A DNA stretch of 64,000 nt. Source: Patescibacteria group bacterium. Lineage in GTDB: Bacteria; Patescibacteriota; Microgenomatia; JAMCZE01. A program made the position numbers and the translations under genes. The DNA lies in contig JAMCZE010000001.1 of NCBI GenBank assembly GCA_023485845.1, positions 62,456-126,455 of the forward strand, given 5' to 3'. Below, in pieces: positions 33,585-64,000 of this stretch. Every line of letters starts with the position of its first letter. The first letter of the stretch is position 1. The notes beneath the pieces were generated by a model that searched no databases, was not told the DNA's origin, and saw only the letters and a list, made by a program, of their open reading frames with translations.

Positions 33585-33587
33585 AAC

Positions 33588-34175
33588 ATGAAAGACTACA
33601 TTGCCAATTTAAAGATATACCTGGATAAGATTAATTTGGCAAAGTTAGAATCCGCTGCTAAATTGCTAGCCGGTACTTATCAAAAACGCTCAACTGTGTT
33701 CGTGGTTGGTAATGGCGGATCAGCTGCCACCGCTTCGCATATTGCTTGTGATTTGGCCAAAACAGTTCGTGGACATAAAGGCGATTCCCCCTGGCTGTCT
33801 TTCAAGGTGATCACGCTGACCGACAACGTTCCCCTGATAACTGCCTGGAGCAATGATGTGGGCTATGAATCAGCTTATTCCGGTCAGTTAGAGGCCTTGG
33901 GAGAAAAAGGAGACTTGTTAATTGCCATTTCTTCTTCGGGAAACTCACAAAACATTCTAAACTGCGTTAAGGCTGCTCGGAAAATGGGAATCAAAACCAT
34001 TGGAATTTCCGGCTTTGGCGGGGGAAAACTAAAGAAAATTTGTGATCTTTCTTTAACCACGGATGCGGCCGCCTATGGTCCGGTCGAGGATATACAATTA
34101 ATTATCAACCACATGTTAACAGACTATTTTTTAAAAACATTGTCACAGGGAAAACTAAAAGTTAATACCCCATAA
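33588..34175 (+). CDS. gmhA: Phosphoheptose isomerase (SIS domain), GmhA
   Basis: VFVVGNGGSAATASHIACDL SIS/GmhA signature. 195 aa. Confidence 0.8.
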   Translation: MKDYIANLKIYLDKINLAKLESAAKLLAGTYQKRSTVFVVGNGGSAATASHIACDLAKTVRGHKGDSPWLSFKVITLTDNVPLITAWSNDVGYESAYSGQLEALGEKGDLLIAISSSGNSQNILNCVKAARKMGIKTIGISGFGGGKLKKICDLSLTTDAAAYGPVEDIQLIINHMLTDYFLKTLSQGKLKVNTP

Positions 34176-41388: not shown

Positions 41389-42598
41389 CCTTGACAAACC
41401 TTTTTGGGGTCACCATGACTGGAATGGAGTTTATTGGGGGACGGTGGCCCGTAATTTTGCCCGTTTTGGGCCAATTAATCTCCATTTTGCCCAGATTCTT
41501 TCCCCGGGCGACTATAATTTCCACTTTTTGCCGCTATTCACTTTGATCTGGTCGGCATTTTTTGGCGTGTTTGGGGTGGCCAATTGGGTGTCGCGCTTTA
41601 TGGCGGCGACGTTTTCCCTGGCGGCCGTTGCCGTTTTCTATCAATTGGCGCGGCGCTATTTTTCTCTCCGGGTGGCCGTGATGGGGGCAATCTTTTGGCT
41701 GGCCACTCCGATGTTTATTTATTTCGGCAAGATGCCGGTGCACGAAATCCCCCTAATGTTTTTTGTCCTGGCGGCACTTTATTTTTATCTAGGCGGCCGC
41801 GATCGGCTGATGTTTTTTTTCATCATTCTGGCAGAGCTGACCACTTGGCCGGGTTTCTTTTTAGTCCCGGCCATCACAATCCATTATTTTCTTTTCGGTC
41901 GTCATTCTGGCAAGCGCAGCGCGGCCAGAATCTTAATTTTGTTGTGGTTTGTTTCTTTCGTCCTTTTTGGCCTTCACCTAACCCACGACTATTTGGTCAC
42001 CGGCTCCTTTTTCGGCGGGGGACTGGCACAAATTTTTTTCCAGCGGGTTGGGGGCGTGCCGCTGGTTCCTTATCTGACTACCTTGGCGCACTGGGCCTGG
42101 ACGTATTACTCGTTTTTGATCCCATTGTCATTGGTTGGGTTGTTTTTAGTCAGGCGCCGAGATATTTTATTGCTGCTTCTAACCTACGCCCTTTTCTATC
42201 CAATTATTTTCCGTGATGCTGCATTTCGCCATGACTATCTCCTGATTTATTTCTGGCCGTTTCTGGCGCTGTCGTCAGCTCTAGCTGTCAATCGGCTATT
42301 TTCCAAAAAGCCTGTTCTAATTTTTTCGTTTCTAGCCATTGTCGTGGGCATGGTGGCTTTGCGTTTTCAATATATCCTGGCTTTGGAAAACAGTGATCTC
42401 TACCGGGATAGTGTGGTGTTTGGTCAATATATTCATGACCACACGGCTCCAGCGGACAGAATCCGGGTGGTCACGGCCGATCCAAATGTTCCTTGGGACG
42501 GCTGGTTTATTGGTTATTATGCCGATCGGCCAATTGTTTTCTCCGGCTTTAACAAAACGGCCACCTATTCCCCCGGCGGGAAAATGACGGTAGAATAG
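41309..42598 (+). CDS. GT-C glycosyltransferase-like polytopic membrane protein
   Basis: 429 aa, more than 10 TM. N-terminal region ..DKPFWGHHDWNGVYW... Start uncertain (80-nt overlap with upstream gene). Confidence 0.55.
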   Translation: MSKRILAGTKWPLLVILLIGGLALSYNLDKPFWGHHDWNGVYWGTVARNFARFGPINLHFAQILSPGDYNFHFLPLFTLIWSAFFGVFGVANWVSRFMAATFSLAAVAVFYQLARRYFSLRVAVMGAIFWLATPMFIYFGKMPVHEIPLMFFVLAALYFYLGGRDRLMFFFIILAELTTWPGFFLVPAITIHYFLFGRHSGKRSAARILILLWFVSFVLFGLHLTHDYLVTGSFFGGGLAQIFFQRVGGVPLVPYLTTLAHWAWTYYSFLIPLSLVGLFLVRRRDILLLLLTYALFYPIIFRDAAFRHDYLLIYFWPFLALSSALAVNRLFSKKPVLIFSFLAIVVGMVALRFQYILALENSDLYRDSVVFGQYIHDHTAPADRIRVVTADPNVPWDGWFIGYYADRPIVFSGFNKTATYSPGGKMTVE

Positions 42599-42606
42599 CA
42601 TTAACC

Positions 42607-43083
42607 ATGAAGTTGCTGGTTATCACAGAATTTAACCCGGAAAAGCTTGGGGGAGCAGAGATGCATGCCAGCCAAGTTTTAAAACGGATCAGGCCAAAGT
42701 TTTCCGCGGTTATTGTTCCCAAGATTTCCTACCCCTACGTCCCCAATTTTTCCTGGATTTTTTATATGCTTTTTGCCACACCGGTTATTTTCTGGGAGAC
42801 GATTCGATCTAAGCCGGATTTGCTTTGGGCCACCCTGGATTTTCCCCAGGCCCAGGTGGGAGCAGTTATTAAGGTGCTCACTAGTAAGCCGCTTTACGTC
42901 ACTTCGCAAAATCCCCTGTTGGGGGAGGAAGAGTTTGTTGGTTTGGGCGGGAAATTAGTCAAATATTTGGTTTCCTTTGCGTTTGCCCGGGCCGATGTGG
43001 TGGCCGCTGTCAGCACTTATTCCGCCAACCTGGCGAAAAAACTCGGGGCCAAAAAAGTGGTTATTATTCCCAACGGCGTATGA
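42607..43083 (+). CDS. GT4 N-terminal Rossmann-domain fragment, ends ..VVIIPNGV*
   Basis: Stops just after the IPNG motif that normally precedes the C-terminal domain. ATGA overlap with the next ORF. Confidence 0.55.
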   Translation: MKLLVITEFNPEKLGGAEMHASQVLKRIRPKFSAVIVPKISYPYVPNFSWIFYMLFATPVIFWETIRSKPDLLWATLDFPQAQVGAVIKVLTSKPLYVTSQNPLLGEEEFVGLGGKLVKYLVSFAFARADVVAAVSTYSANLAKKLGAKKVVIIPNGV

Positions 43084-43601
43084 TTAAAATCATTACCACT
43101 TCATCACTGATCCCGCGCAACGGCATTGACGTGCTAATTAACGCCTGTAAGCTATTAGCTATCAGCTATCAGCTCGTTATTGCTGGAGACGGGCCGGAGC
43201 GAGCAAAGTTGGAAAAGCTGGCTGCCGACATGCCGGTGAAGTTTCTTGGTCGTGTCCCCAATAATCTAGTCCCTAGTCTACTAGTCACTAGTCACTTATT
43301 TGTCCGTCCGTCCCGTTTTGAGGGCTTTGGCAGTTCATTTATTGAGGCAATGGCCGCCGGATTGCCGGTGATCGGCACGCCGGTCGGGGGAATCGTCGAT
43401 TTTCTTAAAGACGGCCAAACCGGGCTTTTGGTTCCGCCGGATGACCCACCGGCCCTGGCTGCCGCCATCACCCGGTTGACAAAGGACAAAAAGCTGGCCA
43501 AAAAACTGTCCGAAGACGGTCGGGAGCTGGTGGAGAAAAAATACCGCTGGGACAAAATCGCCGACCACGTCTATTTGGAAATGAAGAAGCTATGTGGTTA
43601 A
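43080..43601 (+). CDS. GT4 C-terminal (Glycos_transf_1) domain fragment
   Basis: ..SLIPRNGIDVLINA..VIAGDGPE..RFEGFGSSFIEAMAAGLPVIGT.. This is the C-terminal half of a GT4. Carries an (AGCTATC)n tract. Confidence 0.55.
   Translation: MIKIITTSSLIPRNGIDVLINACKLLAISYQLVIAGDGPERAKLEKLAADMPVKFLGRVPNNLVPSLLVTSHLFVRPSRFEGFGSSFIEAMAAGLPVIGTPVGGIVDFLKDGQTGLLVPPDDPPALAAAITRLTKDKKLAKKLSEDGRELVEKKYRWDKIADHVYLEMKKLCG
43150..43174. repeat. Imperfect heptanucleotide tract, same unit as 26526..26560 (AGCTATT AGCTATC AGCTATC AGCT)
   Basis: Read directly. Shares the exact 18-mer AGCTATCAGCTATCAGCT with the (ATCAGCT)5 locus. Confidence 0.8.
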
Positions 43602-45199
43602 GAATCCTGCTTGGTTTTCCCGCCGTCTATTTTTTGTCGGGCTTTCCGCTGGCCCGGTTGTTTTTGCCGCAAGAGAAAACCTTTTCCCTAAAATTATTAC
43701 TTACCTCTTTTGCCTTCAGCTGTTTTCTCACCTATCCGGCGGCCGTTTTAACCACAATGATCGAAGGCCAATCGGCCGCCGCCATCTACAGTGTTCATTT
43801 GCCACATTCTCTGCTGTCCCTGGCGATTATTAGCTTGCCGTTTTGGTTTCTTCTCTGGAAAAAGAGGCTCCCGCGTCTTCATCTGCCCAGTCTTCGTAAA
43901 GTTCATCTTTTATTGGCCCTATTCTTGATTCTTTATTCCCTATTCGTCTTTGTTAATCTGAACCGCGCCGATGTTCTGGGTGATGATTATGATCTGGGCT
44001 ACCAGGCCTACAATCTCCAGGATGGCATCCTTGATGCCCGCCGGGCTTACGTGATTTCCTTTAACACCCATCCGCCGCTAATGATGACCATAAAGCATTA
44101 TGGCATGCAGCTTTTCTATCCTTGGGGTCTTGACGGCCTTTCTGACTGGATGTTTCGGGGAGTGGAAGGCATGATGGGTCTGGGGGTGATCCTGACATCA
44201 TACTTACTGGTCCGGGACTTTTTTAGTGAGCGGACTGCACTATTAACAGCCGCCCTCCTGGCGGTGAATAATTATTTGATCTTTATGGGGCGGATTTTTC
44301 TCCGGGAAATATACCTCACGTTTTTTCTGGTTATCGCCCTCTATTTTTTCCTGCATAAGAGAGTGTTCTTAGCCGCGTTTTTTCTTGGTTGCGCGCTTCT
44401 TGTCAAAGCCTCCGCCGTCATCTTGTTGCCGGTTTTTATTCTCTGGTTGTTAAAGGAGAAGAGAGTTAAAGAATTGGCTGTGGTGTTCTCAACTTTAATC
44501 GCTGTTTATGCACCGGTGGTTGTTTATAACGTCGGGGCTTACCTGGTGACTGGACATATGGATGCCACCTTTTCCTGGCTGTTTCACTTGCCAAACCCTT
44601 TTTTAACCGGACAATCCGCAAATCCTTTGTTAACCAACCCATCGGCCATTATTTCCATTTTAACGGATTTGTACGGTTGGCCGGTGTTTGCCTTTTTCCT
44701 CCTCTGTTTGGTAATTTTCCTTTTTCAGCGTCGGCACCAATATCTGCTGGTCTGGTTGGTGTCGTCCTTAATTTTCTTTTGTCTTGGCCCGCTGCGGGAA
44801 TATTACCTTTTGCCGTTGACAATCCCCCTGGTTATTATTTTGGCCGATGTTTTTAAAAAATTGCCGATTTTGATTGTTTCCATCTTAATTTTTTCGGCCG
44901 TTTATTCATTTAGCTCCGATTCCGCTATCGTCCGAGCATACAGTGCAGATCGGGGATGGAAAAATCTTAGCGCAAATCTATCAAAAGTCTATCTGCCAGG
45001 TGATTGTCTAATTGCTGGCCAGGGAGTCTCCGACTTGCCATTGCGTCGCTACCTGAAAACCGACGATGGTGTTAAGACCTATCTTCTCGGTCCAAATTAC
45101 CCTCACTATTACAAGATGTGCACGGAAGTTAAAGATCCAGAAAGAGAAATTGTGATTACTTATAATAATATTGGTAAAGTGACTTATGAAGTTTATTAA
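43592..45199 (+). CDS. GT-C glycosyltransferase, ArnT/PMT-like
   Basis: LGDDYDLGYQAYNL DD-type loop motif. 535 aa polytopic. Confidence 0.65.
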   Translation: MWLRILLGFPAVYFLSGFPLARLFLPQEKTFSLKLLLTSFAFSCFLTYPAAVLTTMIEGQSAAAIYSVHLPHSLLSLAIISLPFWFLLWKKRLPRLHLPSLRKVHLLLALFLILYSLFVFVNLNRADVLGDDYDLGYQAYNLQDGILDARRAYVISFNTHPPLMMTIKHYGMQLFYPWGLDGLSDWMFRGVEGMMGLGVILTSYLLVRDFFSERTALLTAALLAVNNYLIFMGRIFLREIYLTFFLVIALYFFLHKRVFLAAFFLGCALLVKASAVILLPVFILWLLKEKRVKELAVVFSTLIAVYAPVVVYNVGAYLVTGHMDATFSWLFHLPNPFLTGQSANPLLTNPSAIISILTDLYGWPVFAFFLLCLVIFLFQRRHQYLLVWLVSSLIFFCLGPLREYYLLPLTIPLVIILADVFKKLPILIVSILIFSAVYSFSSDSAIVRAYSADRGWKNLSANLSKVYLPGDCLIAGQGVSDLPLRRYLKTDDGVKTYLLGPNYPHYYKMCTEVKDPEREIVITYNNIGKVTYEVY

Positions 45200-46283
45200 T
45201 TTTCTTATTGATTTGGTTGTAGTCAGCCTATTCTTGTTTAATATCATCCCTCAGAAATATCATGTCATGGGCTTCTCTTTCCATAATGGTGGCGATGATG
45301 TCACTTACTTCAAGTTAGCCCAGAGCTTTGCCCAAGGAAATCCTTTTGGATGCGGCTGTTCAATCGGATATTCATTGACTTTAGCCCCGATTTTAAAATT
45401 GATGCCAAACATGTCTCACGATGATTTTCTTGTTGCAGTTTCGTTTATCACTTCAATAGGGCTCTTCCCACTCGGACAGATACTCCTATTCGAAATAAGT
45501 AAAAAAATGACCGGGTCAACTGAAACTGGGTCAGTAGTGGTGTTATTTTGGACGCTGTTGCCAATCGTCACCTTCTTGTTGTTAAAATTTATTATCCACG
45601 ATCCTAATGCTGGAGATATTTCGTCACATCTAATCTGGGCCCAAATGCTGACCGAGGGAATAACAACGATGGTTTCGCTTCTGGCATTAAATTTATTTTT
45701 AGATTTGCATAAAAAGCAAACCATCTCAAACATTATCCTGTTTGGAGCAATGTCTGGTTATATATTTCTCCTAAGAATAACTGGTGTTGTGGCAATTGTG
45801 GTGTTTGCTTTAATTTTTATTAAAAGCAAAAAATGGAAACAACTATTAATCTTTCTCACTTCTGCTTTTGTAATTGTGCTTCCCCAGTTGATCTATAATT
45901 ACACATTTTTTGGATCTCCACTTACTAGCGGATATGTAGTTAATAATCGTCTCGAGAGTGGCCTTTTTAGCGCGAAATATTTACTTGATGCTCTTATTAA
46001 AACTTGGACAAGGTTTGGTCCACTGGTGTTAGTAGTGATACCAATTACAGTAATGATTTTTTGGTCAAGCCTTATAAAATTAAAACGTTACTGCCAGGAC
46101 GGCGCTCTGGTAATTTTTCTCTGGACGATCGGGACAGTGGCAATATACTCCCTGTACTATTATACTTATACTGGTGACTACGTTCGGTTCATGATCCCAA
46201 TTCTGCCATTCCTGAGCCTAATTTTTATTTCCGGAATACCTTATGAGAATATTATCAATCGGCTTAGATCGCGCGCTATTTGA
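45186..46283 (+). CDS. GT-C-like polytopic membrane protein
   Basis: HNGGDDVTYFKLAQSF DD motif after TM1. 365 aa. AT-richer than upstream genes. Confidence 0.5.
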   Translation: MKFINFLIDLVVVSLFLFNIIPQKYHVMGFSFHNGGDDVTYFKLAQSFAQGNPFGCGCSIGYSLTLAPILKLMPNMSHDDFLVAVSFITSIGLFPLGQILLFEISKKMTGSTETGSVVVLFWTLLPIVTFLLLKFIIHDPNAGDISSHLIWAQMLTEGITTMVSLLALNLFLDLHKKQTISNIILFGAMSGYIFLLRITGVVAIVVFALIFIKSKKWKQLLIFLTSAFVIVLPQLIYNYTFFGSPLTSGYVVNNRLESGLFSAKYLLDALIKTWTRFGPLVLVVIPITVMIFWSSLIKLKRYCQDGALVIFLWTIGTVAIYSLYYYTYTGDYVRFMIPILPFLSLIFISGIPYENIINRLRSRAI

Positions 46284-49520: not shown

Positions 49521-50345
49521 ATGACGAAGGAAATAGTAATAAAGCCCAACGGGTCTTTTTTAGATGTTGATCTTCGAGAAATCTGGCGATATCGAGAGCT
49601 TTTTTATATTTTTGCGTGGCGGGATATCAAATTACGATATAAACAGACTGTGTTGGGTATAATTTGGGTTCTTTTTCAACCATTGGTCTCCACCGGTATT
49701 TTTAGTATCTTTTTTGGAAAGATTGCAAAAATCCCCTCTGACAATTTACCATACCCCCTTTTTGTGCTCGCCGGGCTGGTGATTTGGAATTTTTTTTCTA
49801 GCGCATTATCGGCATCAAGCCAAAGTTTGATCGGAAACGAAGGAATAATTAAAAAAGTATATTTTCCCAGACTAATTCTTCCGATTTCCTCGGTTGTCAC
49901 CGCCGGTGTTGATTTTTTTATAACATTTCTGGTTCTTTTGGTTGCTGTTGTTTATTTTGGTTACCTTCCTAGTCTATTAATCCTACCGGTTCTCCCGGTT
50001 CTATTAATAATCACGATTCTTATGGCCTCTGGTCTTGGAATGTTTATGGCATCGCTCAATGTTAAATATCGGGATGTGCGATTTATTCTGCCTTTTTTTA
50101 TTCAGATTGGACTCTTTGTTACGCCGGTAATTTATCCCCTATCGATAATTTATGATTGGAGGAAATGGTTTTTGATCATTAATCCCCTGACAGGAGTTAT
50201 TGAAACACTACGAGCATTAATAGTTGGCAGAGCGCAACCTGATTTTAGTTTGTTGATTATCGGTCTAATTGTGTCAATTCCGGTTTTTTGTTTCGGGCTT
50301 TTTTATTTTCGGCGAACTGAAGCCTATTTTGCCGATATTGCGTGA
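49521..50345 (+). CDS. wzm: ABC-2 type polysaccharide export permease (Wzm/TagG/KpsM family)
   Basis: N-terminal ..REIWRYRELFYIFAWRDIKLRYKQTVLGIIW (ABC2_membrane signature). 6 TM. Confidence 0.8.
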   Translation: MTKEIVIKPNGSFLDVDLREIWRYRELFYIFAWRDIKLRYKQTVLGIIWVLFQPLVSTGIFSIFFGKIAKIPSDNLPYPLFVLAGLVIWNFFSSALSASSQSLIGNEGIIKKVYFPRLILPISSVVTAGVDFFITFLVLLVAVVYFGYLPSLLILPVLPVLLIITILMASGLGMFMASLNVKYRDVRFILPFFIQIGLFVTPVIYPLSIIYDWRKWFLIINPLTGVIETLRALIVGRAQPDFSLLIIGLIVSIPVFCFGLFYFRRTEAYFADIA

Positions 50346-50351
50346 GTGCTT

Positions 50352-51575
50352 ATGGATTCAATAGTCGAGGTTAATAAACTATCCAAAAAGTATCGCCTTG
50401 GCGGTCAGCAGCCATATCTGACCCTTAGGGATACCCTGGCGGAACTTGTCCGTCACCCAATTATCAAGAGGGACAATCATGAATTTTGGGCCCTTAGGGA
50501 TGTTACTTTCCGGGTTGCTCCCGGAGAGGTGGTTGGGATTATCGGGCGTAATGGAGCCGGTAAGAGCACTTTGTTAAAAATAATCAGCCGCATCACTTGC
50601 CCAACTGCGGGGGATGTGAGGTTACAAGGCAACGTCTCCAGCTTGCTAGAGGTTGGCACCGGTTTCAGCCCCGAGTTAACAGGCCGGGAGAATATCTTTC
50701 TTAACGGAGCAATATTAGGAATGAGCCGGTCAGAAATCAGGCGCCGCTTTGACGCCATCGTTGATTTTGCCGAGACAGAAAAATTTCTTGATACACCAGT
50801 TAAATATTATTCCTCGGGGATGTATATGCGCCTGGCATTTTCCGTGGCTGCCCATCTGGAGCCAGATATTTTACTAGTCGATGAAGTGCTTGCAGTCGGT
50901 GATGCTGAATTCCAAAAAAAATGCTTAGGGAAGATGGAGGAGGTTCGTAATAGGCAGGGGCGAACGATTCTTTTTGTCAGTCATAATATGAAAACAATTG
51001 AGCAGCTGTGCAGCCGGTGTTTGCTTATTGACAAGGGAAAGATTGTTATGGATGGTGACAGCCAAAAAGTGATCAGTCATTATCTTAACAAACAAAAGAT
51101 TCAAAGTTCGGCAATGCTTTTCCCAGTTGATAAAAACAAAATCGCGCAAATAACAAAAATTGCTATTTTAAATTCCAAATATCAGTCCCGGTCGGAAGTG
51201 CCCATCAGTGAAGATTTTTACATTAATATTGAGATGAGAGTCAACCATAGGGTTAAGAAAGCATTAATAAGTATTTATTTTTATTCCCAAGGTGACTTAC
51301 TACTATTTTCAACGGAGGGCGATCATAGCGGACAATTGCTTAGTTATCCTGCTGGAAAATACAAAACCATGGTCAGAATTCCTGCGTTTTTATTTGAATC
51401 GGGTAATTATACTATCGATGTGGCCATTCAAAATCCGGGAGTGGAAATTATTGATAAGGTATCTGAAATTGGCTTCGAAGTTCTTAACCAAGATAATCCC
51501 CGAAGTCTTCTGATAAATGGCGTCGCTCATGATAAAATAGCCGTCATCTTAGACTATGAGACGAAAAAATCTTAA
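50352..51575 (+). CDS. wzt: ABC transporter ATP-binding protein Wzt/TagH type with ~160-aa C-terminal (putative glycan-binding) extension
   Basis: Walker A GIIGRNGAGKSTLL, signature YSSGMYMRLAFS, Walker B ILLVDE. C-terminal beta-rich extension. Confidence 0.85.
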   Translation: MDSIVEVNKLSKKYRLGGQQPYLTLRDTLAELVRHPIIKRDNHEFWALRDVTFRVAPGEVVGIIGRNGAGKSTLLKIISRITCPTAGDVRLQGNVSSLLEVGTGFSPELTGRENIFLNGAILGMSRSEIRRRFDAIVDFAETEKFLDTPVKYYSSGMYMRLAFSVAAHLEPDILLVDEVLAVGDAEFQKKCLGKMEEVRNRQGRTILFVSHNMKTIEQLCSRCLLIDKGKIVMDGDSQKVISHYLNKQKIQSSAMLFPVDKNKIAQITKIAILNSKYQSRSEVPISEDFYINIEMRVNHRVKKALISIYFYSQGDLLLFSTEGDHSGQLLSYPAGKYKTMVRIPAFLFESGNYTIDVAIQNPGVEIIDKVSEIGFEVLNQDNPRSLLINGVAHDKIAVILDYETKKS

Positions 51576-52332
51576 TAATCTTCGCAAAACAATCGTTGAG
51601 GCTGCATTTCACAGTGGGGAGGGGCATATCCCCAGCGCCCTTTCAATCCTGGATATACTCTGGGTTCTTTATGGTGGGGTTCTCAATGTCAGTCCTAAAA
51701 GTTGCCAAAGCATTTCTCGTGATAGATTTATCCTCAGTAAGGGGCAAGCATCGCTGGGTTTATACGCTATTCTTTCAGAAAAAAAGTTTTTTCCCAAAAG
51801 AGAGTTTAAAAAATTTGGCAGTTATGGGGGTATATTAGGTGGCCATCCGGATATGAACAAAATTCCGGGAGTGGAAGCATCCACTGGCTCGCTTGGACAT
51901 GGTTTCCCTATGGCTGCTGGAGTCTCCCTTGGTTTAAAAATTCAGCATATTAATGCAAAGGTTTATGTTCTTATCGGTGACGGAGAGTGTAATGAGGGGT
52001 CTGTTTGGGAAACCGCGTTAATTGCAGCCCATCACAAATTAGACAATCTTTGCTGTATTATTGACCACAACCACTCCACTGATAGGGCCTTAAAAGTTGA
52101 CGACTTAGAGGAAAAATTTAGATCATTTAACTGGAAATCATTGAGCGTTAATGGCCATGACCAGCTAGAGATTAAGAAGGCTTTAATGACGAAACATCCT
52201 GGGAAGCCATTGGCAATCGTGGCTAACACTATAAAAGGTCACGGCATCAAAATCATGGAAAATAATCCCGCTTGGCATCATAAAGCGCCGACCCGGGAGG
52301 AACTTAGTCAAATCTTACAGGAGCTAATCTAG
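51556..52332 (+). CDS. Transketolase, N-terminal (TPP-binding) subunit of a split transketolase
   Basis: ..GHIPSALSILDIL.., GHPD.., GSLGHGFPMAAGVS.., GDGECNEGSVWE.. motifs. Confidence 0.85.
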   Translation: MRRKNLNNLRKTIVEAAFHSGEGHIPSALSILDILWVLYGGVLNVSPKSCQSISRDRFILSKGQASLGLYAILSEKKFFPKREFKKFGSYGGILGGHPDMNKIPGVEASTGSLGHGFPMAAGVSLGLKIQHINAKVYVLIGDGECNEGSVWETALIAAHHKLDNLCCIIDHNHSTDRALKVDDLEEKFRSFNWKSLSVNGHDQLEIKKALMTKHPGKPLAIVANTIKGHGIKIMENNPAWHHKAPTREELSQILQELI

Positions 52333-52333
52333 T

Positions 52334-53212
52334 ATGAGAAAGCAGTTTGTGACCACAGTTGAAGATATCATTGCCAATGACCAGAAAACGGTTCTTATGT
52401 TGGGTGATATTGGTGTCTTCGGTTTTCGCCGATCATTTGAGCTTTATCCCAGTCGGGTCTATAACATCGGAATTTTAGAACAAGCCACTATCAGTATGGC
52501 GGCTGGTCTGAATATGACTGGATTAACACCGATTGTTCATACGATCGCCACGTTCATTACGGAAAGGTGTTTTGAACAGATCAAAGATGATTTTGGATAC
52601 CAAAAACTGAACGGAAATATTGTTAGTGTTGGCGGATCTTATGATTATGCTGCACTCGGATGCACGCACCATGCCCCGGACGATGTTCCAATTCTTATGA
52701 ATATCCCCACTGTCCAGGTGGTTGTTCCCGGGACAGCAGGGGATTTTGATAGCCTCTTTAGACAATCATATTCAAATCGTGGCTTAAGGTATTATCGTTT
52801 AAGCGAAAGAGAAAATGAATTTCGTGTTCCGGTTAAATTTGGTAAGGCAAACGTTATAAAATTAGGGAGAAAAGCTACAGTTATTGCTGTGGGCCCGCTT
52901 CTTGATAAGGCTTTGGTGGCAGTAAAAAATCTAGATGTGACAGTTATCTATTTGACAACAGTGCGACCTCTGGATACGAAGACAATAACAGCTAATCTTT
53001 CTTCCGGTAAATTACTAATTTGTGAGCCTTACTATAGCGGTTCAATTACTCAGGAAATTATGTCCGCATTCAAAGGTACGCTGAGGATAGATCACCTAGG
53101 CGTGCCAAAAAAGTTCCTTGTAAATTATGGGACAGCCAAAGATCACGATCGACACATGGGTTTTACGGAAAAAGAAATAAATAGGCGGGTGAAGGAGCTT
53201 ATTCATGAATAG
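52334..53212 (+). CDS. Transketolase, C-terminal (pyrimidine-binding) subunit
   Basis: Follows the N-terminal subunit with a 1-nt gap. Transket_pyr/Transketolase_C-like sequence. Confidence 0.8.
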   Translation: MRKQFVTTVEDIIANDQKTVLMLGDIGVFGFRRSFELYPSRVYNIGILEQATISMAAGLNMTGLTPIVHTIATFITERCFEQIKDDFGYQKLNGNIVSVGGSYDYAALGCTHHAPDDVPILMNIPTVQVVVPGTAGDFDSLFRQSYSNRGLRYYRLSERENEFRVPVKFGKANVIKLGRKATVIAVGPLLDKALVAVKNLDVTVIYLTTVRPLDTKTITANLSSGKLLICEPYYSGSITQEIMSAFKGTLRIDHLGVPKKFLVNYGTAKDHDRHMGFTEKEINRRVKELIHE

Positions 53213-54224
53213 GTTAGCGGCCAAAATGCTAGATGAGGCTAAGACGGTACATCGTCAAGTTCGCCTCACCGAACTAAAAGGAAAAACAGTCTTACTGACT
53301 GGGGCATCTGGCATGATTGGTAGCGCTTTTCTTGCTTCAATGAAAGGCATGGTTGGAAGAGTGATAATTGTCTCTAAAACAAGCTTTCCTAATTATTTTA
53401 ATGACTTGGTTAATGCAAAGAGAACATTAATGTTGGTTGGTGATTTAACAGATCAAGGCTTTTATAAGCAGTTGCCAAGAGCAGATTATATTATTCACTG
53501 CGCCGGGTATGCCCAGCCACAAAAGTTTTTGAGCGATCCCATTTCCACCATAACTTTAAATACCTGGACGGTGGTTAAATTAATGGAAAAACTTAATCCC
53601 GACGGGAAATTCCTGTTTATTAGCAGCAGCGAAATTTATAGTGGTTTAGATCATCCTCCATACAAAGAGGAACAAATAGGAACGACTAGTCCCATGCACC
53701 CCCGTTCGTGCTATATTGAGTCAAAGCGGTGTGGCGAAGCAATCTGTATGGCTTATAGACAAAAAGGTTTGGACGTTAAGATAGCTCGGGCGTCTCTGGT
53801 ATACGGGCCGGGAACCAGACTAGGAGACAAAAGAGTTCTTAATAGTTTCATTGAGAAGGGGCTAAATGGGAAAATTGATTTACTAGACACCGGCAAATCA
53901 AGGCGGACTTATTGTTATATATCAGATGCTGTGAGCTTAATGTGGAAAATTCTTCTCAAGGGGGAACAGCCGGTTTATAATGTTGGCGGAAAATCAAAGA
54001 TAACCATCGGACGGCTGGCTAAGAAAATTGGTCGTAATCTTGGTGTCCCCGTGAGTTTTCCTAAGAGCTCTAGCTCGGGACTAGCAGGAGCTCCGGCGGA
54101 AGTTTATGTTAACGTAAATCGTGCGGAGAAAGAATTTGGAAAGATTAATTATGTGTCGTTCGATGAAGGACTAAGAAGGGTTATTGAATGGGAGAAACTC
54201 CTTAACTCTTATGAAGCTAAATAG
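53205..54224 (+). CDS. NAD(P)-dependent sugar-nucleotide epimerase/dehydratase (extended SDR)
   Basis: GAAGGAG RBS. TGASGMIGS Rossmann motif and catalytic YIESK (YxxxK). Confidence 0.8.
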   Translation: MNRLAAKMLDEAKTVHRQVRLTELKGKTVLLTGASGMIGSAFLASMKGMVGRVIIVSKTSFPNYFNDLVNAKRTLMLVGDLTDQGFYKQLPRADYIIHCAGYAQPQKFLSDPISTITLNTWTVVKLMEKLNPDGKFLFISSSEIYSGLDHPPYKEEQIGTTSPMHPRSCYIESKRCGEAICMAYRQKGLDVKIARASLVYGPGTRLGDKRVLNSFIEKGLNGKIDLLDTGKSRRTYCYISDAVSLMWKILLKGEQPVYNVGGKSKITIGRLAKKIGRNLGVPVSFPKSSSSGLAGAPAEVYVNVNRAEKEFGKINYVSFDEGLRRVIEWEKLLNSYEAK

Positions 54225-56322
54225 AAATGATAAGATATTTATTGCTGGCCATACCGGCATGGTTGGCTCTGCTATTTTGAGAGAACTTCAAAGAAGAGGC
54301 TTCAGAAACCTAATAATGGCAACACACGAGGAGCTTAATTTAGAGGATCAAGCTGCGGTAGCAAAATTTTTTGACAATCAAGAGCCAGACTATGTTTTTC
54401 TGGCTGCAGCAAAGGTTGGTGGTATTAAAGCAAATATGGAACATATGGCACAGTTCCTTTATCAAAATATTGCTATCCAAATAAATGTTATTCATCAAAG
54501 TTATCTCCATAAGGTAAAGAAGCTTTGCTTTTTAGGAAGCAATTGTGTTTATCCCAAGGACTCTCCTCAACCGATTAGAGAAAATTCACTTTTAACCGGT
54601 CCTTTTGAACCAACGAACGAAGGGTATGCCGTGGCGAAGTTAGCAGGGCTGAAAATGATTCAGTATTATCAAAAAGAATATGGTCTAAACGCGATTAGCC
54701 TGATGCCGTGCAATCTTTACGGACAAAATGATAATTTTGATCCGTCCGGGTCGCATGTCATGTCAGCCCTGGTGAAACGTTTTGTTGATGCACAAGAGGA
54801 TGGTTTGGAAGAGGTTATTAATTGGGGGACCGGTAAAGTTATCCGCGAATTTCTCCATGTTGATGACTTGGCCAAGGCGATTTTATTTCTGATGGATAAC
54901 TACAATTCTTCAGAGATTATTAATATCGGAACCGGAAAAGGAGTTTCGATTGAAGAATTAACTAATTTAATTTCTAAAGCAGCAGGTTATAAAGGAGTAA
55001 TAAAATGGGATACTACTAAGCCTGACGGCATGCCGAAGAAGTTGCTTGATGTCACTAAGCTATTTAGTCTTGGTTATAAGCCGGAAATTTCTCTCGAAGA
55101 TGGCATAAAAGAACACGTGGCATATTATCGTAAGATAAAAAAAAGGAATATTCCCTTAATTAGAAACGCTTTTGCCCACGAACAGGAAACCCGTAAGGCT
55201 TTAGCAGATTTTATTCTCAAGACTAAAATGCTGAGTATGAGTGATCAGTGTTTTGAATTTGAGAAGCAATTCGCAAAATATCAGGGAAGAAATGAGGCAG
55301 TGTTTTTTAACAGCGGCAGTAGTGCGAATCTAGCAGTCCTCCAATCGCTGATTAATATGGGTAGATTAAGAAGGGGTGATAGGGTCGGTTTCTCGGCCTT
55401 GACCTGGTCCACGGATGTCATGCCGATGATTCAGCTTGGCTTGCAACCGGTCCCGGTTGATTGCGAACCTAATACTTTAAATAGTATGCCTAAGAATTTA
55501 CTTGATTGTCTTAAAACCACTTCGCTGAAGGCTTTTTTTATAACTAACGTTTTAGGATTTACCTCTTCTTTAGAGAAGATAAAAGATATTTGTCAAAAGA
55601 GGAAGATAATTTTACTGGAAGATAATTGTGAATCATTAGGAACAGAGTTACCTGGTGGGAAGGCGGGAAATTTTGGATTAGCTTCAACTTTTTCTTTTTA
55701 TGTGGCCCACCATCTGTCCACTATTGAAGGGGGAATGGTGACAACAAACGATGTTGATTTAGCGGAAATGTTAAGAATTGTTCGGGCTCATGGTTGGGAT
55801 AGAAACCTACGCCCGGAACAGCAAAGCAACTGGAGAAAGAAGTATCAGATTGTGGATGAATTTGAGGCAAAGTATAGTTTTTATGACCTGGGGTTTAATT
55901 TTCGACCGACGGAAATAAATGGTTTTATTGGACTTTATCAACTTTCGTATATCGAAGATATTATCAATAAGAGAGAAAGTAATTTTTTGAGACTCGAAAA
56001 AGCTGCCCGTAAGAATAAGGATTTAATTTTTCTTGACCATTCTCACATTAAAAGATTGTCTAACTTTGCCTTTCCGGTTATCTGTAAAACAAAAGAATTG
56101 AAAGAAAAATATTTGAAAAAATTTCAGGATGCCGGAGTAGATGCTAGGCCGATAATCACCGGCAACATTCAGCGCCAGCCTTTCTTTGGTAAATATGTCA
56201 AGAGAAAATATTCTCTGCCCGGAGCTGATTTTATCCACGATAATGGCTTCTATTTCGGTAATTACCCGGAACTTAAAGATTCAGAACTAGAAGTATTAAC
56301 TGAGTGTTTGAGAAGGGTCTAA
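54211..56322 (+). CDS. Bifunctional fusion: N-terminal GDP-L-fucose-synthase (Fcl/ColC-like epimerase-reductase) and C-terminal ColD-like PLP-dependent GDP-4-keto-6-deoxymannose 3-dehydratase domain
   Basis: N-domain: IAGHTGMVGSAI, YAVAK, NLYGQNDNFDPSGSHVMSALVKRF. C-domain: ILLEDNCES, FSFYVAHHLSTIEGG (His where DegT aminotransferases have the PLP lysine, as in ColD), RAHGWDRNL, ARPIITGN. Confidence 0.7.
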   Translation: MKLNRNDKIFIAGHTGMVGSAILRELQRRGFRNLIMATHEELNLEDQAAVAKFFDNQEPDYVFLAAAKVGGIKANMEHMAQFLYQNIAIQINVIHQSYLHKVKKLCFLGSNCVYPKDSPQPIRENSLLTGPFEPTNEGYAVAKLAGLKMIQYYQKEYGLNAISLMPCNLYGQNDNFDPSGSHVMSALVKRFVDAQEDGLEEVINWGTGKVIREFLHVDDLAKAILFLMDNYNSSEIINIGTGKGVSIEELTNLISKAAGYKGVIKWDTTKPDGMPKKLLDVTKLFSLGYKPEISLEDGIKEHVAYYRKIKKRNIPLIRNAFAHEQETRKALADFILKTKMLSMSDQCFEFEKQFAKYQGRNEAVFFNSGSSANLAVLQSLINMGRLRRGDRVGFSALTWSTDVMPMIQLGLQPVPVDCEPNTLNSMPKNLLDCLKTTSLKAFFITNVLGFTSSLEKIKDICQKRKIILLEDNCESLGTELPGGKAGNFGLASTFSFYVAHHLSTIEGGMVTTNDVDLAEMLRIVRAHGWDRNLRPEQQSNWRKKYQIVDEFEAKYSFYDLGFNFRPTEINGFIGLYQLSYIEDIINKRESNFLRLEKAARKNKDLIFLDHSHIKRLSNFAFPVICKTKELKEKYLKKFQDAGVDARPIITGNIQRQPFFGKYVKRKYSLPGADFIHDNGFYFGNYPELKDSELEVLTECLRRV

Positions 56323-57322: not shown

Positions 57323-58506
57323 AAAATAATTTGATAGGTAAGGGACATAAGCCAACTAAGAATCAATCGACCTTTAATAAGGCAATATCTCTTCAAAGTC
57401 ATCTAAAGAATTCAAATTTTCCTAAAATTCGGAATTTTATCATAAATGACCCAGACTCAATTAGATTTGAACCATTTTTGAACAGAGATCTACTTAGGTT
57501 AAATTTAGAGAGTCTGCAAAAAATAAAGCCGAATGAGACTAAGGTAATAAAGCAGGTGAAAGAAGAAATTGGCCGTATTGACAAAATTGTTAATAAAACA
57601 CCAGATATTATGACTAAGAATCTTCGGCCTTTATCACGAAGCTTAAGTAAGTCACCGAAGGTTTCGATTATCACAACTTCAATGAACCTGGCTCCACTAT
57701 TAGATGAGACGATGAGATCGATTTTCAATCAGGAAGGGGATGATTATGAATATATTGTCATTGATGGCGGATCGTCTGATAACTCTTTAAAGTTAATGAA
57801 GAAATACCCAATTTCGGTTTTGATTTCCGAAAAAGACAGTGGCTATCCAGAAGCTTTCTGGAAAGGGCTACGTTTGGCAAAAGGGAAGTATATTATGCAG
57901 TGTTGTATTTCTGATGGCTATGCTTCACCATCTTGGGTCAAGAAATGTGTCCAATTTCTTGATAGCCATAAAGATATCTCTTTGGTTTGGGGAAATGCGT
58001 CTGGTTTATCTGCAAAAGGTCAAATGGTTGATATTACTTATCCGCGTTTTGTTTACGAAGAGGCACCGCAGGGTGAACAAATGTTTTCTTATTGGTTAAA
58101 GACGGCATTTCATTACCCGGAGGTAAACCTATGCGTCAGGAAAGAAGTTATTCTTAAATGCTATCCACCCATGCCCTGGCGAAACGAAGATATGTTGGAT
58201 TGGTTGGAATTTGACTACCGGTTTAATAAATCAGGTTATCTTTCAAAATATTTACCGATTCTGGCCAGTTTTCATTATCTTGAGCACGGCAACAAATTAG
58301 GCAAGAAACTTGACAAAAATGGTTGGTACCAGAGAGTATTAAAAATACACAAAAGAAGAATTTGGTTTTACAAATGGCAGTTATTACTTGGTTTTGCTAC
58401 ACACCGTTTTGTAAACTCTAAAGAAGAAGAACTATCTACCAAGTTTGATCACAACAAGTTAAGACAAGAAACGCTTTCAGAAATTAAATCACATCTGCTG
58501 CAATGA
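57319..58506 (+). CDS. GT2 glycosyltransferase with C-terminal extension
   Basis: VSIITTSMN..YEYIVIDGGSSDNS GT2 signature. Confidence 0.7.
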   Translation: MKNNLIGKGHKPTKNQSTFNKAISLQSHLKNSNFPKIRNFIINDPDSIRFEPFLNRDLLRLNLESLQKIKPNETKVIKQVKEEIGRIDKIVNKTPDIMTKNLRPLSRSLSKSPKVSIITTSMNLAPLLDETMRSIFNQEGDDYEYIVIDGGSSDNSLKLMKKYPISVLISEKDSGYPEAFWKGLRLAKGKYIMQCCISDGYASPSWVKKCVQFLDSHKDISLVWGNASGLSAKGQMVDITYPRFVYEEAPQGEQMFSYWLKTAFHYPEVNLCVRKEVILKCYPPMPWRNEDMLDWLEFDYRFNKSGYLSKYLPILASFHYLEHGNKLGKKLDKNGWYQRVLKIHKRRIWFYKWQLLLGFATHRFVNSKEEELSTKFDHNKLRQETLSEIKSHLLQ

Positions 58507-59528
58507 AAAAAATTTTTCTTGCAGTTCCGAACCCACTTTTCGCGAATAATGGTATATTTACCCGGAAGGATTGGAATCATACATTTGACTGCTGGAGGGG
58601 GTTAAGAGTTCGATTAAAAAAACTTGGTTATAGCCTTACTACTCCCGATAATAATTCACTATCAGGTTGCGAGTGGGTGATTTTTATTGATACGTCAAGC
58701 GTTGATGGTCTTTCCAGTGATAAAAGTTGGCCTAATAGGCAATTATATTCAGAAGCATTAAGAGTAAACCTAAAAAGTAAAATGATATTGTTTCTGTGGG
58801 AAGGAAAAGTTATTAATTCCATCAATTACGCAAGAGAAACGTGGGATAAGTTTGATAATATTTTTACCTGGGATGATGATTTAGTAGACAACCATAAATT
58901 TCACAAATTCTATTTGCCCGTACCGAATGTGCCACCGGTTAAAAAAACTATACCGTTTAATAAAAAAAAATTATTGGTTAATATCTCAATAAATAAATAT
59001 GCAAAAGGACCGAATGAATTATATTCAGCCAGGAGAAAAACGATTGAATATTTTGACAATAACTTTCCTAATGATTTTGATCTTTTTGGCCCTCGATGGA
59101 ACAAGCCAATAAACACTTTTCAAAAATATCTTCCCTGGACATGGAAAAAATATCGTACATATCGCGGCGTGTCGTTTAATAAACTTAAAACCTTGTCTCA
59201 ATATAAATTTACCCTTTGCTATGAGAATATGACAGGTTCAAAGGGGTGGGTGACAGAGAAAATATTTGATGCCCTTAAAGCTAAAAGTGTGCCTATATAT
59301 TGGGGGGCGCCAAATATTGGAAAGTATGTAGACAATGATGTGTTTATTGACAGGCGAAATTTTTCTAGTGAAGAGAAACTGGCAAAATTCCTGATGCATA
59401 TGACAGAAAATGAATATAATAACTATATAATCTCCGGCGAGCAATATATAAAAAGCAGCAGATTTAATAAATTTTCATCTAGATATTTCGGCGACACGAT
59501 CCTAAAACTACTTAAAATTAATGCATAA
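58503..59528 (+). CDS. GT10-family (alpha-1,3-fucosyltransferase-like) glycosyltransferase
   Basis: KFTLCYENMTGSKGWVTEKIFDALKAKSVPIYWGAP matches the GT10 motif of H. pylori FutA (KFxLxFENS..GYVTEKI.DA....PIYWG.P) as I recall it. Confidence 0.7.
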   Translation: MKKIFLAVPNPLFANNGIFTRKDWNHTFDCWRGLRVRLKKLGYSLTTPDNNSLSGCEWVIFIDTSSVDGLSSDKSWPNRQLYSEALRVNLKSKMILFLWEGKVINSINYARETWDKFDNIFTWDDDLVDNHKFHKFYLPVPNVPPVKKTIPFNKKKLLVNISINKYAKGPNELYSARRKTIEYFDNNFPNDFDLFGPRWNKPINTFQKYLPWTWKKYRTYRGVSFNKLKTLSQYKFTLCYENMTGSKGWVTEKIFDALKAKSVPIYWGAPNIGKYVDNDVFIDRRNFSSEEKLAKFLMHMTENEYNNYIISGEQYIKSSRFNKFSSRYFGDTILKLLKINA

Positions 59529-62012: not shown

Positions 62013-64000
62013 ATGAGACAAGAGAATTCTATTAGTTTTGTTATGCCAGCGTATAACAGTGAACGTACCGTTAATGAGGCAGTTGAGTCAATTATTAATG
62101 GAAACCTTATAGACGGAGATGAGATTATTATTGTGGACGACGCGTCCACGGACAAAACGACAGAAAGGATTCAGACTTTAGCCGCAAAATATCCCATAAT
62201 AAGAATAATTCGTAACAGAGTGAACAAGGGTTGTCCAGCCTCAAGAAACATTGGAATAAGAGCGGCAAAAAATCTTCTCATTTTTAATCTTGATGCGGAT
62301 GATGTTTTGATAGCCGGAAGTGTTTCTAAACTGAAAGAATATCTCCTTTTTGAGAAAGCAGATGTCGCCGCCTTCGGAGAAATTCATTTTTTTAAGAATA
62401 ATACAAACGAAGTCACACATCGCTGGATACTTCCGTCTGGTATTCTTACTTTGGCAGACTATTTATCTGGACCGTATGTGCCCGGGGGAAATTATCTTTA
62501 CACTAAAAAAAGCTGGGCAAAAGTTAATGGCTATTGGGAATACGGAAAAGGACTTCATGAATTTTGGGGATTTAGCCTTAAACAAATTGCCTCTGGGTCA
62601 AAATTTATAGTGTTAGCAAACACCTTCTATTATCATCGATACAACCATAAGTCTCTTTTTATCCGGGAAACCAGTAGCAGTGATGACAGCTCTTTAATGG
62701 CAACGAAAATGACAAAGCCATTTCTTTCTTTAATAGAACCTCATGATCGGCAATATATTGAAAGTGAAGAGGGTAGCCGAACGTGGTTTACAAATCTGTC
62801 TAATCATCCGATCCGTGTCAAAAATAAAGAGATCGGCCGGCAAGGTATAAAGGAGGTTCTCGAGAAAAAAACGCGACCGTTTTTTGGCGGTTGGATTGGA
62901 TCAAAAGTGGAACGAGCACATGATTATTATCGATTTGCTAAGGACTTTGTAGCTTTTAAATCCATCCAAAATGATCGTTTCTTGGTTTCATGGAGAGATA
63001 GTCGACCCAGATTAGGTGAGGACACACCCAATACTGTCTTTGATCCCCATTACATCTATCATACTGCTTGGGCTGCTAGAATTTTGTCAAAGATCAAGCC
63101 AAAATATCATACCGATATATCATCTATTCTCTACTTTAGTTCGATTATTTCTGCCTTTATACCGGTAAGATTTTACGATTACCGTCCTGTTAATTTAAGG
63201 TTAAATAATTTAACCTCCGGCTTCGCGGATCTGACAAAGTTACCGTTTGCTGATAACAGCATCCCTTCACTTTCGTGCATGCATACCGTTGAACATATTG
63301 GGCTAGGTCGGTATGGGGACAAGCTTAATCCAGATGAAGACCTCCGGGCAATAAGCGAATTAAAAAGAGTTCTCGCCTATGGGGGGTCACTTTTGTTTGT
63401 GGTACCCATTGGTCGGCCAAGAGTTTTATTTAATGCCCACCGCATATATTCTCTAAATCAGGTCATCTCTTATTTTCCCGATCTTGAGTTAAAAGAATTT
63501 TCCTTAGTGCCAGACGACTATGATCGATTGGGAATGGTAGATAATCCGTCGGAGGAATTTTGTAACCAGCAAGATTACGCTTGCGGGTGTTTCTGGTTTA
63601 CAAAGAGGGAGCTCAAAACTTTTGGAAGTAGAAATAGTAAAAAATACTCAGTCGATGTAGTGATACCCGTCTACAACGGACAAGACTACATCATTCAAGC
63701 GATTGAGTCTGTCAATAAACAGACTTATAAACCGAATAAAATTATTGTTGTTGACGATGGGTCGACAGATAAAACGCCGGCGTTAATTAAACGTCTGAGG
63801 AAAAGCAATCAGACATTATTTTATTTGCGAAAAAGAAGAGGAGGGCCGAGCTCTGCCCGCAATGTTGGTATTAAATATAGCAATGCTGAATTCATTGCTT
63901 TTTTAGATGCTGATGATGTTTGGGAGTCAGCTAAACTGGAAAAACAAATTAAACTGTTTAAAAATAGCGACAATCAAAATTTAGGCGTTGTTTATTGCAA
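62013..64000 (+). CDS. Large multidomain protein GT2 - DUF268-like methyltransferase-fold domain - GT2, 3' end beyond window
   Basis: Hand-translated: no stop from ATG 62013 to nt 64000, so the ORF track omits it. N-terminal SFVMPAYNSERTV..IIIVDDASTDKT..LDADD. Middle ..SCMHTVEHIGLGRYGD..LAYGGSL..NAHRIYS. C-terminal VDVVIPVYNGQDYI..IIVVDDGSTDKT..LDADD. Confidence 0.6.
   Translation, partial: MRQENSISFVMPAYNSERTVNEAVESIINGNLIDGDEIIIVDDASTDKTTERIQTLAAKYPIIRIIRNRVNKGCPASRNIGIRAAKNLLIFNLDADDVLIAGSVSKLKEYLLFEKADVAAFGEIHFFKNNTNEVTHRWILPSGILTLADYLSGPYVPGGNYLYTKKSWAKVNGYWEYGKGLHEFWGFSLKQIASGSKFIVLANTFYYHRYNHKSLFIRETSSSDDSSLMATKMTKPFLSLIEPHDRQYIESEEGSRTWFTNLSNHPIRVKNKEIGRQGIKEVLEKKTRPFFGGWIGSKVERAHDYYRFAKDFVAFKSIQNDRFLVSWRDSRPRLGEDTPNTVFDPHYIYHTAWAARILSKIKPKYHTDISSILYFSSIISAFIPVRFYDYRPVNLRLNNLTSGFADLTKLPFADNSIPSLSCMHTVEHIGLGRYGDKLNPDEDLRAISELKRVLAYGGSLLFVVPIGRPRVLFNAHRIYSLNQVISYFPDLELKEFSLVPDDYDRLGMVDNPSEEFCNQQDYACGCFWFTKRELKTFGSRNSKKYSVDVVIPVYNGQDYIIQAIESVNKQTYKPNKIIVVDDGSTDKTPALIKRLRKSNQTLFYLRKRRGGPSSARNVGIKYSNAEFIAFLDADDVWESAKLEKQIKLFKNSDNQNLGVVYC

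Follow-up and report, generated by a model that had tools for sequence, protein, structure and literature searches.

By analogy, one of the closest described systems to the one reported here may be the YerE/YerF pair, in which a thiamine diphosphate (ThDP)-dependent enzyme encoded in a surface-polysaccharide cluster attaches a two-carbon unit at the C4 ketone of a 6-deoxy sugar nucleotide and a reductase then acts (PMC12247030). YerE is a member of the decarboxylase superfamily (ThDP/FAD acetolactate-synthase type), and uses pyruvate to give a CDP sugar an acetyl or hydroxyethyl branch. In miharamycin and amipurimycin biosynthesis, it has been proposed, although not demonstrated, that split-gene transketolases branch keto sugars with a hydroxyacetyl group, and 13 further Streptomyces clusters carry proposed split-gene transketolases (PMC12247030). 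Reviews confine transketolase-type branching of keto sugars to these Streptomyces metabolites, where it is unproven, and our literature search returned the Streptomyces proposals and engineering work only, and no transketolase characterised from a pathway to O-antigen, capsule or GDP-sugars. Here, a split transketolase-like gene pair and its adjoining reductase gene are described from a 64,000-nucleotide stretch (hereafter the window; positions 62,456 to 126,455 of contig JAMCZE010000001.1, assembly GCA_023485845.1) of a Patescibacteria group bacterium. The transketolase-like family to which the pair belongs is distinct, has a rebuilt substrate pocket and travels with one sugar-nucleotide reductase in cell-surface glycan clusters, so its most likely role is to make an unusual sugar and not to take part in central metabolism.

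Three plus-strand genes, overlapping or abutting one another, fill positions 51556-54224:

51556-52332, plus strand: TK-N, the half that binds ThDP (diphosphate) in a split, transketolase-like enzyme of non-canonical type (258 aa; Transketolase_N, E = 1e-35)

52334-53212, plus strand: TK-C, the pyrimidine-binding and C-terminal half (292 aa; Transket_pyr 9e-19, Transketolase_C 2.5e-9)

53205-54224, plus strand: SDR339, an extended short-chain dehydrogenase/reductase (SDR; 339 aa; Epimerase 1e-41)

The 3' end of wzt overlaps TK-N by 20 nt, and SDR339 overlaps TK-C by 8 nt. The same proteins were called independently in two public assemblies of the same organism. A first-pass annotation of the window had described a split transketolase between wzm/wzt and SDR and ColC/ColD genes; the arrangement is real, and the interval that it gave for the transketolase (51556-54224) also covers the SDR gene. 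A tblastn search of the window found no pentose-phosphate gene.

TK-N scored 217 bits against the N chain of the Carboxydothermus hydrogenoformans split transketolase (PDB 6yak), and TK-C scored 85 bits against PDB 6yaj versus 65 bits against DXS. On the NCBIfam transketolase model NF004559 the two halves reached 232 and 88 bits, which is below the curated equivalog cut-off of 488. The DXS model TIGR00204 gave 79 bits (cut-off 466); TK-N fits transketolase far better than DXS, and the pair is split, unlike the single-chain DXS. The three-domain fold of YerE-type acetolactate synthases (TPP_enzyme_N/M/C) was not found, the match to TPP_enzyme_C being a marginal one of 21 bits to the shared ThDP motif.

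The family was aligned with E. coli TktA (residue numbering checked on the K-12 sequence) and with the C. hydrogenoformans housekeeping split transketolase, and active-site residues were counted over 54 relatives for TK-N positions and 45 for TK-C positions. The GDG...N motif for ThDP and metal (Asp155, Asn185) and Glu411 are invariant in the window protein and its relatives, and the equivalents of His26, His100, His261 and His473 are invariant in the family. The equivalent of His66 is Gln in the window TK-N and His in 50/54 relatives, and TK-N shows a loop deletion after Asn185.

The distal part of the substrate pocket is altered. In canonical transketolases, Arg358, Ser385, His461 and Arg520 are phosphate ligands, and Asp469 reads hydroxyls of the substrate (C3/C4, D-threo specificity). 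Among the four phosphate ligands, Arg358 alone is retained. Ser385 has become Phe or Trp in 43/45 relatives (Phe in the window), while His461 is replaced by Gly, Asp469 by Leu and Arg520 by Glu, the last a charge reversal, each in 44/45, the window included. The Phe434 equivalent is Ile in TK-C. These replaced residues sit in new, strongly conserved motifs, GDIGVFG and VGxSYDYAALGCTHH.

Three of the altered positions (385, 469 and 520) are those changed in the E. coli variant S385Y/D469T/R520Q, which was reported to have been evolved stepwise from phosphorylated towards non-phosphorylated and non-polar acceptors (PMC5073344). Both the variant and the family carry an aromatic residue at 385 and are altered towards fewer contacts with phosphate and hydroxyls; the variant was made in the laboratory and acts on aromatic aldehydes, whereas the natural family adds the change of His461 to Gly and has Glu rather than Gln at 520.

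An exhaustive HMMER search (E <= 1e-30) gave 192 clusters at 50% identity, and every one of them is of split length. The canonical TH...GEDG..HQ motif is present in none of the best 150 of these 192 clusters, and nearly all full-length representatives with a recognisable motif read G-x-S-x-D-Y...G..H-H/Q. A phylogeny had been proposed as a check in the first pass; in the neighbour-joining tree, the housekeeping split transketolase falls outside the clade of the window and all SDR-linked pairs, and the pair itself lies outside both canonical and housekeeping split transketolases. Judged from sequence, TK-N/TK-C is a discrete family with a rebuilt substrate pocket and with cofactor and catalytic residues intact. 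It shares its fold and these residues with TktA and with the C. hydrogenoformans enzyme (6yak/6yaj), and its split architecture with the latter; it differs from them in the pocket residues, the loop after Asn185, the separate clade and the glycan-operon setting. We infer that the pair has lost the sugar-phosphate binding mode and acts at the level of nucleotide sugars.

One genome per species was scanned, which gave 80 loci with TK-N relatives, and cassette statistics were collected with tblastn and all-against-all clustering over the 53 loci in which TK-N is at least 50% identical. In these 53, TK-C directly follows TK-N, and SDR339 comes directly after TK-C in 41 of the 48 loci with enough downstream DNA. 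Identity across loci ranges from 48-71% for TK-C and from 44-55% for SDR339. Hosts of the cassette include Patescibacteria, Omnitrophota, Verrucomicrobiota (Prosthecobacter), Bacteroidota, Syntrophia, Alpha- and Gammaproteobacteria, Treponema bryantii, Bifidobacteriaceae and Acidobacteriota, among others; related loci span more than ten phyla, and three further loci from the candidate phyla radiation (CPR), recognised by Pfam labels, have the same gene order.

A typical locus reads (HTH_17) Gmd, Fcl, wzm, wzt, TK-N, TK-C, SDR339, a second SDR (often Fcl-type), a protein of about 315 aa (U315), and a glycosyltransferase of family GT10 with methyltransferases. Within 10 kb of the cassette, Fcl-type genes and U315 were each found in 31 of the 53 loci, wzm in 15, wzt in 16, Gmd in 14, DegT in 13 (8 of them ColD-type), GT10 in 12 and GT11 in 8; GHMP kinases were found in 3 and SIS genes in none. 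Pentose-phosphate context was seen in 1/53. The wzm homologues lie two genes upstream of TK-N in approximately 15 related loci, and the Fcl-type gene beside SDR339 retains the residues known from GDP-fucose synthase (Ser/Thr-x-Cys, YxxxK and His). These Gmd, Fcl-type and fucosyltransferase-like neighbours point to GDP-deoxyhexose and fucosyl chemistry, not to heptose or pentose-phosphate metabolism.

A Pfam census of the three open reading frames (ORFs) downstream of the cassette (136 ORFs) was dominated by extended SDRs, with methyltransferases, GT10 and DegT also present and no nucleotidyltransferase among its top 25 families. The cassette contains no uronic-acid-forming dehydrogenase. U315, which lies about 3.6 kb downstream of TK-N in loci L001-L058, has no significant Pfam match (best Methyltransf_31, E = 0.003); profile searches against Pfam and PDB gave weak class-I methyltransferase matches, and the protein carries an S-adenosylmethionine-binding-like core (EFGCGxG / LxGLDW) and a conserved N-terminal GEHR..W..GW. 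This methyltransferase-like protein is absent from the window. By these comparisons, the cassette is a conserved, widespread and uncharacterised glycan module of a transketolase-like enzyme and an SDR. The triad has the same layout as the miharamycin and amipurimycin systems, a split transketolase beside an oxidoreductase in a sugar-modifying cluster; those systems make specialised metabolites and all belong to Streptomyces, whereas the cassette is a surface-glycan module over many phyla.

Two TK-N/TK-C/SDR339 triads occur in one locus of a complete 5.5-Mb Syntrophorhabdaceae chromosome (L019; OY762209.1, 2827067-2847822), where they are interleaved with Gmd and three Fcl-type genes. The idea that cassette loci share a chain-terminating cap, made by the cassette and recognised by the C-terminal domain of Wzt, was rejected: across cassette loci, the Wzt ATPase domain is 54-65% identical, while the C-terminal domain is 30-36% identical in three loci and otherwise mostly unalignable.

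SDR339 belongs to a large, unnamed family. Its closest structure is human UDP-xylose synthase (UXS), both by sequence (102 bits) and by fold (AlphaFold2 model with a pLDDT of 87.5; Foldseek E = 3e-23). Like the UXS/ArnA-type decarboxylating SDRs, it has the extended SDR fold, an S/T-x-E motif (S-S-E), YxxxK (C-Y-I-E-x-K) and a similar loop for binding the nucleoside diphosphate (NDP), with a YGPG...D.RV..FI region. Both features expected of a UXS are missing: there is no equivalent of Arg277, and the end of beta2 is Gln/His/Asn-Ser/Asn, not Asp. In UXS, RmlB and GalE, the beta2 Asp anchors a tightly bound NAD+. An SDR with a UXS-like NDP-sugar fold but without this Asp fits the part of a reductase that consumes its cofactor, the part that YerF plays beside YerE. 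Solved relatives include the Campylobacter jejuni reductase that converts CDP-fructose to CDP-glucitol (83 bits). From the sequence motifs and the model, SDR339 is probably an NADPH-dependent NDP-sugar ketoreductase.

The reaction that we favour, tentatively and at somewhat under an even chance, is transfer of a two-carbon ketol unit by the transketolase pair onto a GDP-4-keto-6-deoxyhexose, with subsequent reduction by the SDR to give a branched sugar. Hydroxypyruvate, a ketose or a similar donor would provide the ketol (glycolaldehyde) unit, which TK-N/TK-C would add to the C4 carbonyl of the GDP-4-keto-6-deoxyhexose; this acceptor would be the product of Gmd, either as such or after epimerisation or 3-deoxygenation. 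The resulting intermediate would be a 4-C-glycolyl branched sugar nucleotide. SDR339 would use NADPH to reduce a carbonyl, most simply the new side-chain ketone, and the branched 6-deoxyhexose would then be methylated in many loci and inserted by a fucosyltransferase-like glycosyltransferase into the glycan exported by Wzm/Wzt. Acceptor, donor, reduction site and product are, in this scheme, what we infer. Given that His26, His100 and His261 hold the donor C1 hydroxyl in transketolases, their retention favours a glycolyl over an acetyl unit. The window pair would thus be functionally analogous to YerE but is not homologous to it, the pair differing in its transketolase fold, in the glycolyl unit indicated by the conserved histidines and in its GDP-sugar neighbourhood.

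In its widest form, the proposal is that a natural transketolase lineage has switched from aldose phosphates to the ketone of a GDP-4-keto-6-deoxyhexose and, together with the reductase, makes an undescribed 4-C-(glycolyl or 1,2-dihydroxyethyl) deoxyhexose for ABC-exported surface glycans in many phyla, including CPR; this is conceivable, and we hold it with some doubt. If true, glycan loci hold a new sugar-branching enzyme concealed behind a very common "transketolase" annotation, and that label is probably being taken for pentose-phosphate capacity when the metabolism of CPR and other uncultured bacteria is reconstructed. The enzyme would constitute a third ThDP enzyme class in branched-sugar biosynthesis for surface polysaccharides, so far the domain of the YerE type alone, and the first demonstrated transketolase-type branched-chain sugar synthase. 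It would also predict an unknown monosaccharide in the fucose-rich, methylated glycans of many phyla and provide a natural ketone-accepting transketolase scaffold for biocatalysis, which reviews list as still missing.

Several points weigh against the proposed transfer onto a GDP-4-keto-6-deoxyhexose. No transketolase has yet been demonstrated to accept a sugar-nucleotide ketone (PMC12247030), no sugar of the predicted structure has been linked to any cassette-carrying organism, and no Gmd was found in the window. Arg358 is retained and a basic residue stands at position 521, next to Glu520, in at least half of the members, so some phosphate binding could still occur. Finally, one same-family pair from Patescibacteria (L043; JBAZUL010000002.1, 9544-14555) lies in an rpiB-TKN-TKC operon that lacks SDR339 and is flanked by class-I fba, glpX, rpe and a prs-like gene. 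It is 57%/55% identical, has the same motifs and is nested inside the SDR-linked clade. Setting it aside as a divergent sub-lineage failed, given this nesting and deviation at 2 + 2 of 158 family-conserved columns; Lys at position 385 in place of Phe/Trp was the sole difference seen. The locus argues, from its gene content, that the family can do classical transketolase chemistry, and implies that it can support pentose-phosphate metabolism or was re-recruited to that role. It may serve as nature's own test of whether pentose-phosphate chemistry is still within reach of the rebuilt pocket.

Further features of the window are as follows:

32604-34175: GHMP-kinase/SIS pair (HddA-/GmhA-like), with profile matches below the curated cut-offs

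49521-50345, plus strand: wzm, ABC-2 permease of a polysaccharide exporter (Pfam ABC2_membrane 2.6e-21)

50346-51575, plus strand: wzt, exporter ATPase with a C-terminal Wzt_C carbohydrate-binding domain (ABC_tran 3.6e-21, Wzt_C 2.1e-8)

54184-56322, plus strand: fused GDP-L-fucose-synthase-type (ColC-like) and ColD-type 3-dehydratase (712 aa; NCBIfam Fcl 423 bits, RfbH 224 bits)

58503-59528, plus strand: GT10 (fucosyltransferase-like) glycosyltransferase (Glyco_transf_10 1.3e-14)

62931-64000, plus strand: DUF268-type methyltransferase reading on into a GT2 domain and past the window end (tblastn, 61% identity to the cassette-locus DUF268 methyltransferase)

The explanation that fares best among the alternatives is that the pair is a genuine sugar-phosphate transketolase, either a housekeeping enzyme in a glycan operon or a dedicated copy feeding a glycan precursor (fructose-6-phosphate for GDP-mannose, or sedoheptulose-7-phosphate for GmhA/HddA-like enzymes). 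It is kept as an unlikely but serious contender because of L043, whose pair sits in an rpiB-tkt...fba-glpX-rpe operon and is no sequence outlier. The intact cofactor and catalytic histidines of the family, the retained Arg358, the basic residue beside position 520 and the linkage of a sister clade to GmhA- and HldE-like genes are likewise in its favour, as is the background that small CPR genomes may carry a single transketolase. Such an enzyme is hard to reconcile with the replacement of three of the four phosphate ligands and of Asp469, the charge reversal at 520 and scores under the curated transketolase cut-offs. The cassette, sometimes in two copies, also occurs in large-genome Verrucomicrobiota, Bacteroidota, Syntrophia and Treponema, in which a canonical tkt is expected, and it is coupled to one SDR family in 41/48 loci with a single case of pentose-phosphate context. 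If the enzyme nevertheless proves to be a working transketolase, the textbook phosphate-binding residues would be dispensable.

The precursor version had been raised in the first pass as a supply of sedoheptulose-7-phosphate to a GmhA/HddA heptose branch at 32604-34175. The GHMP-kinase and SIS genes are present there; their assignment is less secure, with 162 bits against HddA (cut-off 600) and 117 bits against GmhA (cut-off 209). The supply itself is not borne out for the cassette clade, since the genes are 18 kb away across a shift in G+C content, no SIS and three GHMP-kinase genes lie within 10 kb in the 53 loci, and most of the phosphate ligands are replaced. The G+C content falls from approximately 0.47 to approximately 0.40 near 44 kb and stays at 0.36-0.42 over the last 20 kb, which hold GT4 genes, wzm/wzt, the cassette and methyltransferases. 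Because of this drop, the exporter/transketolase block looks distinct from the heptose-like genes 18 kb upstream, and the composition suggests that the block was acquired separately from the upstream region rich in PMT_2 genes.

The sister clade consists of split transketolase-like pairs at loci L059-L078 (e.g. L071:2152-12000, L065 and L061), with TK-N 44-50% identical and His461 again replaced by Gly. Its module contains a GmhA-like SIS gene, an HldE-like kinase/nucleotidyltransferase, a 4,6-dehydratase-like SDR and pyruvate dehydrogenase E1 alpha/beta-like genes, together with a TylC3-type sugar C-methyltransferase, a zinc-dependent alcohol dehydrogenase and short-chain SDRs. By its gene content, the module resembles a pathway to a heavily branched NDP-heptose in which two ThDP enzymes take part.

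It is improbable that the acceptor is a small molecule that is neither phosphorylated nor nucleotide-linked. The C2-extended ketol would then be reduced by the SDR to a polyol-type substituent, or a glycolyl group would be delivered as by QncN/L-type split transketolases, and the group would decorate the glycan. The pocket changes match those that favour non-phosphorylated, non-polar acceptors in engineered transketolase; the CDP-fructose to CDP-glucitol reductase among the solved SDR relatives also fits, as do distant members in non-glycan, secondary-metabolite settings (the R. fascians fas operon and an S. clavuligerus plasmid). Set against this, the cassette has no conserved association with genes for an acyl carrier, a lipoyl protein, a CoA-ligase or a nucleotidyltransferase, and SDR339 has the full architecture of an NDP-sugar-type extended SDR.

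The distant TK-C members, at 34-40% identity, were found in a glycan locus of a Desulfobaculum plasmid (L084), on the S. clavuligerus plasmid (L085) and at 79436-80326 of R. fascians pFiD188 (L086). The last is the transketolase-like gene of the fas cytokinin operon, beside a P450, a ferredoxin and Fas4. On the 707-kb S. clavuligerus plasmid, the pair lies beside a condensation-domain gene and is 39.5% identical to TK-C.

The gene directly downstream of SDR339 is the ColC/ColD fusion, which takes the slot of the Fcl-type SDR in a typical cassette. Its N half, of GDP-L-fucose-synthase type, scored 333 bits against PDB 7ll6 and its ColD-like C half 213 bits against PDB 2gms. The ColD-type His-His motif SFYVAHHLSTIEGG of the fusion aligns with the ColD sequence SFYSHHIATMEGG, with His in place of the lysine that binds pyridoxal phosphate (PLP); the C half thus has both the DegT fold and the His-for-lysine replacement of a ColD. 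In three loci (L007, L013 and L033), the ColC/Fcl-type and ColD-type genes are adjacent and separate, and the fusion was called in both public assemblies. ColD was also considered as an obligatory partner of the cassette and rejected, with ColD-type genes in 8/53 loci.

That the acceptor here is GDP-4-keto-3,6-dideoxymannose from the ColD domain, giving a yersiniose-like 3,6-dideoxy-4-C-branched hexose, is very unlikely: the ColD-type domain with its His-His motif does lie directly downstream in the same operon, and the reaction would parallel that of YerE on CDP-4-keto-3,6-dideoxyglucose (PMC12247030), but ColD-type genes are nearby in so few loci that the family acceptor needs no 3-deoxygenation, the fusion to a ColC-like partner may indicate direct channelling to colitose, and it sits where most cassettes have a plain Fcl-type SDR. 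The first-pass suggestion of a YerE-like two-carbon transfer onto a 4-keto sugar is supported in its general form alone, by gene context (SDR, Gmd, Fcl, methyltransferase-like and fucosyltransferase-like partners), and not as regards the ColD product, which is unlikely to be the general acceptor because ColD-type genes occur in 8/53 loci.

The whole window is one long glycosylation region with many PMT_2-type membrane glycosyltransferases and GT2 and GT4 genes. Located 3' of the fusion are GT2, GT10, FkbM- and class-I methyltransferase genes and then the DUF268 methyltransferase. The GT10 protein shares 50% identity with its counterpart in 12 related loci, where GT10 likewise lies downstream of the cassette. 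The frame at 62931-64000 has no stop between the DUF268 methyltransferase and the GT2 motif and may represent a fusion of methyltransferase and glycosyltransferase.

PMT_2/GT39-like multi-pass membrane glycosyltransferases, at least nine of them paralogous, stand in tandem at 22601-31883 and 41309-46283, an unusually large array for a small CPR genome. At 42607-43601, a GT4 appears to be divided between overlapping ORFs, with the N-terminal Glyco_transf_4 domain (158 aa) in one and the C-terminal Glycos_transf_1 domain (173 aa) in the other, which could represent a frameshift, a pseudogene or a genuine split.

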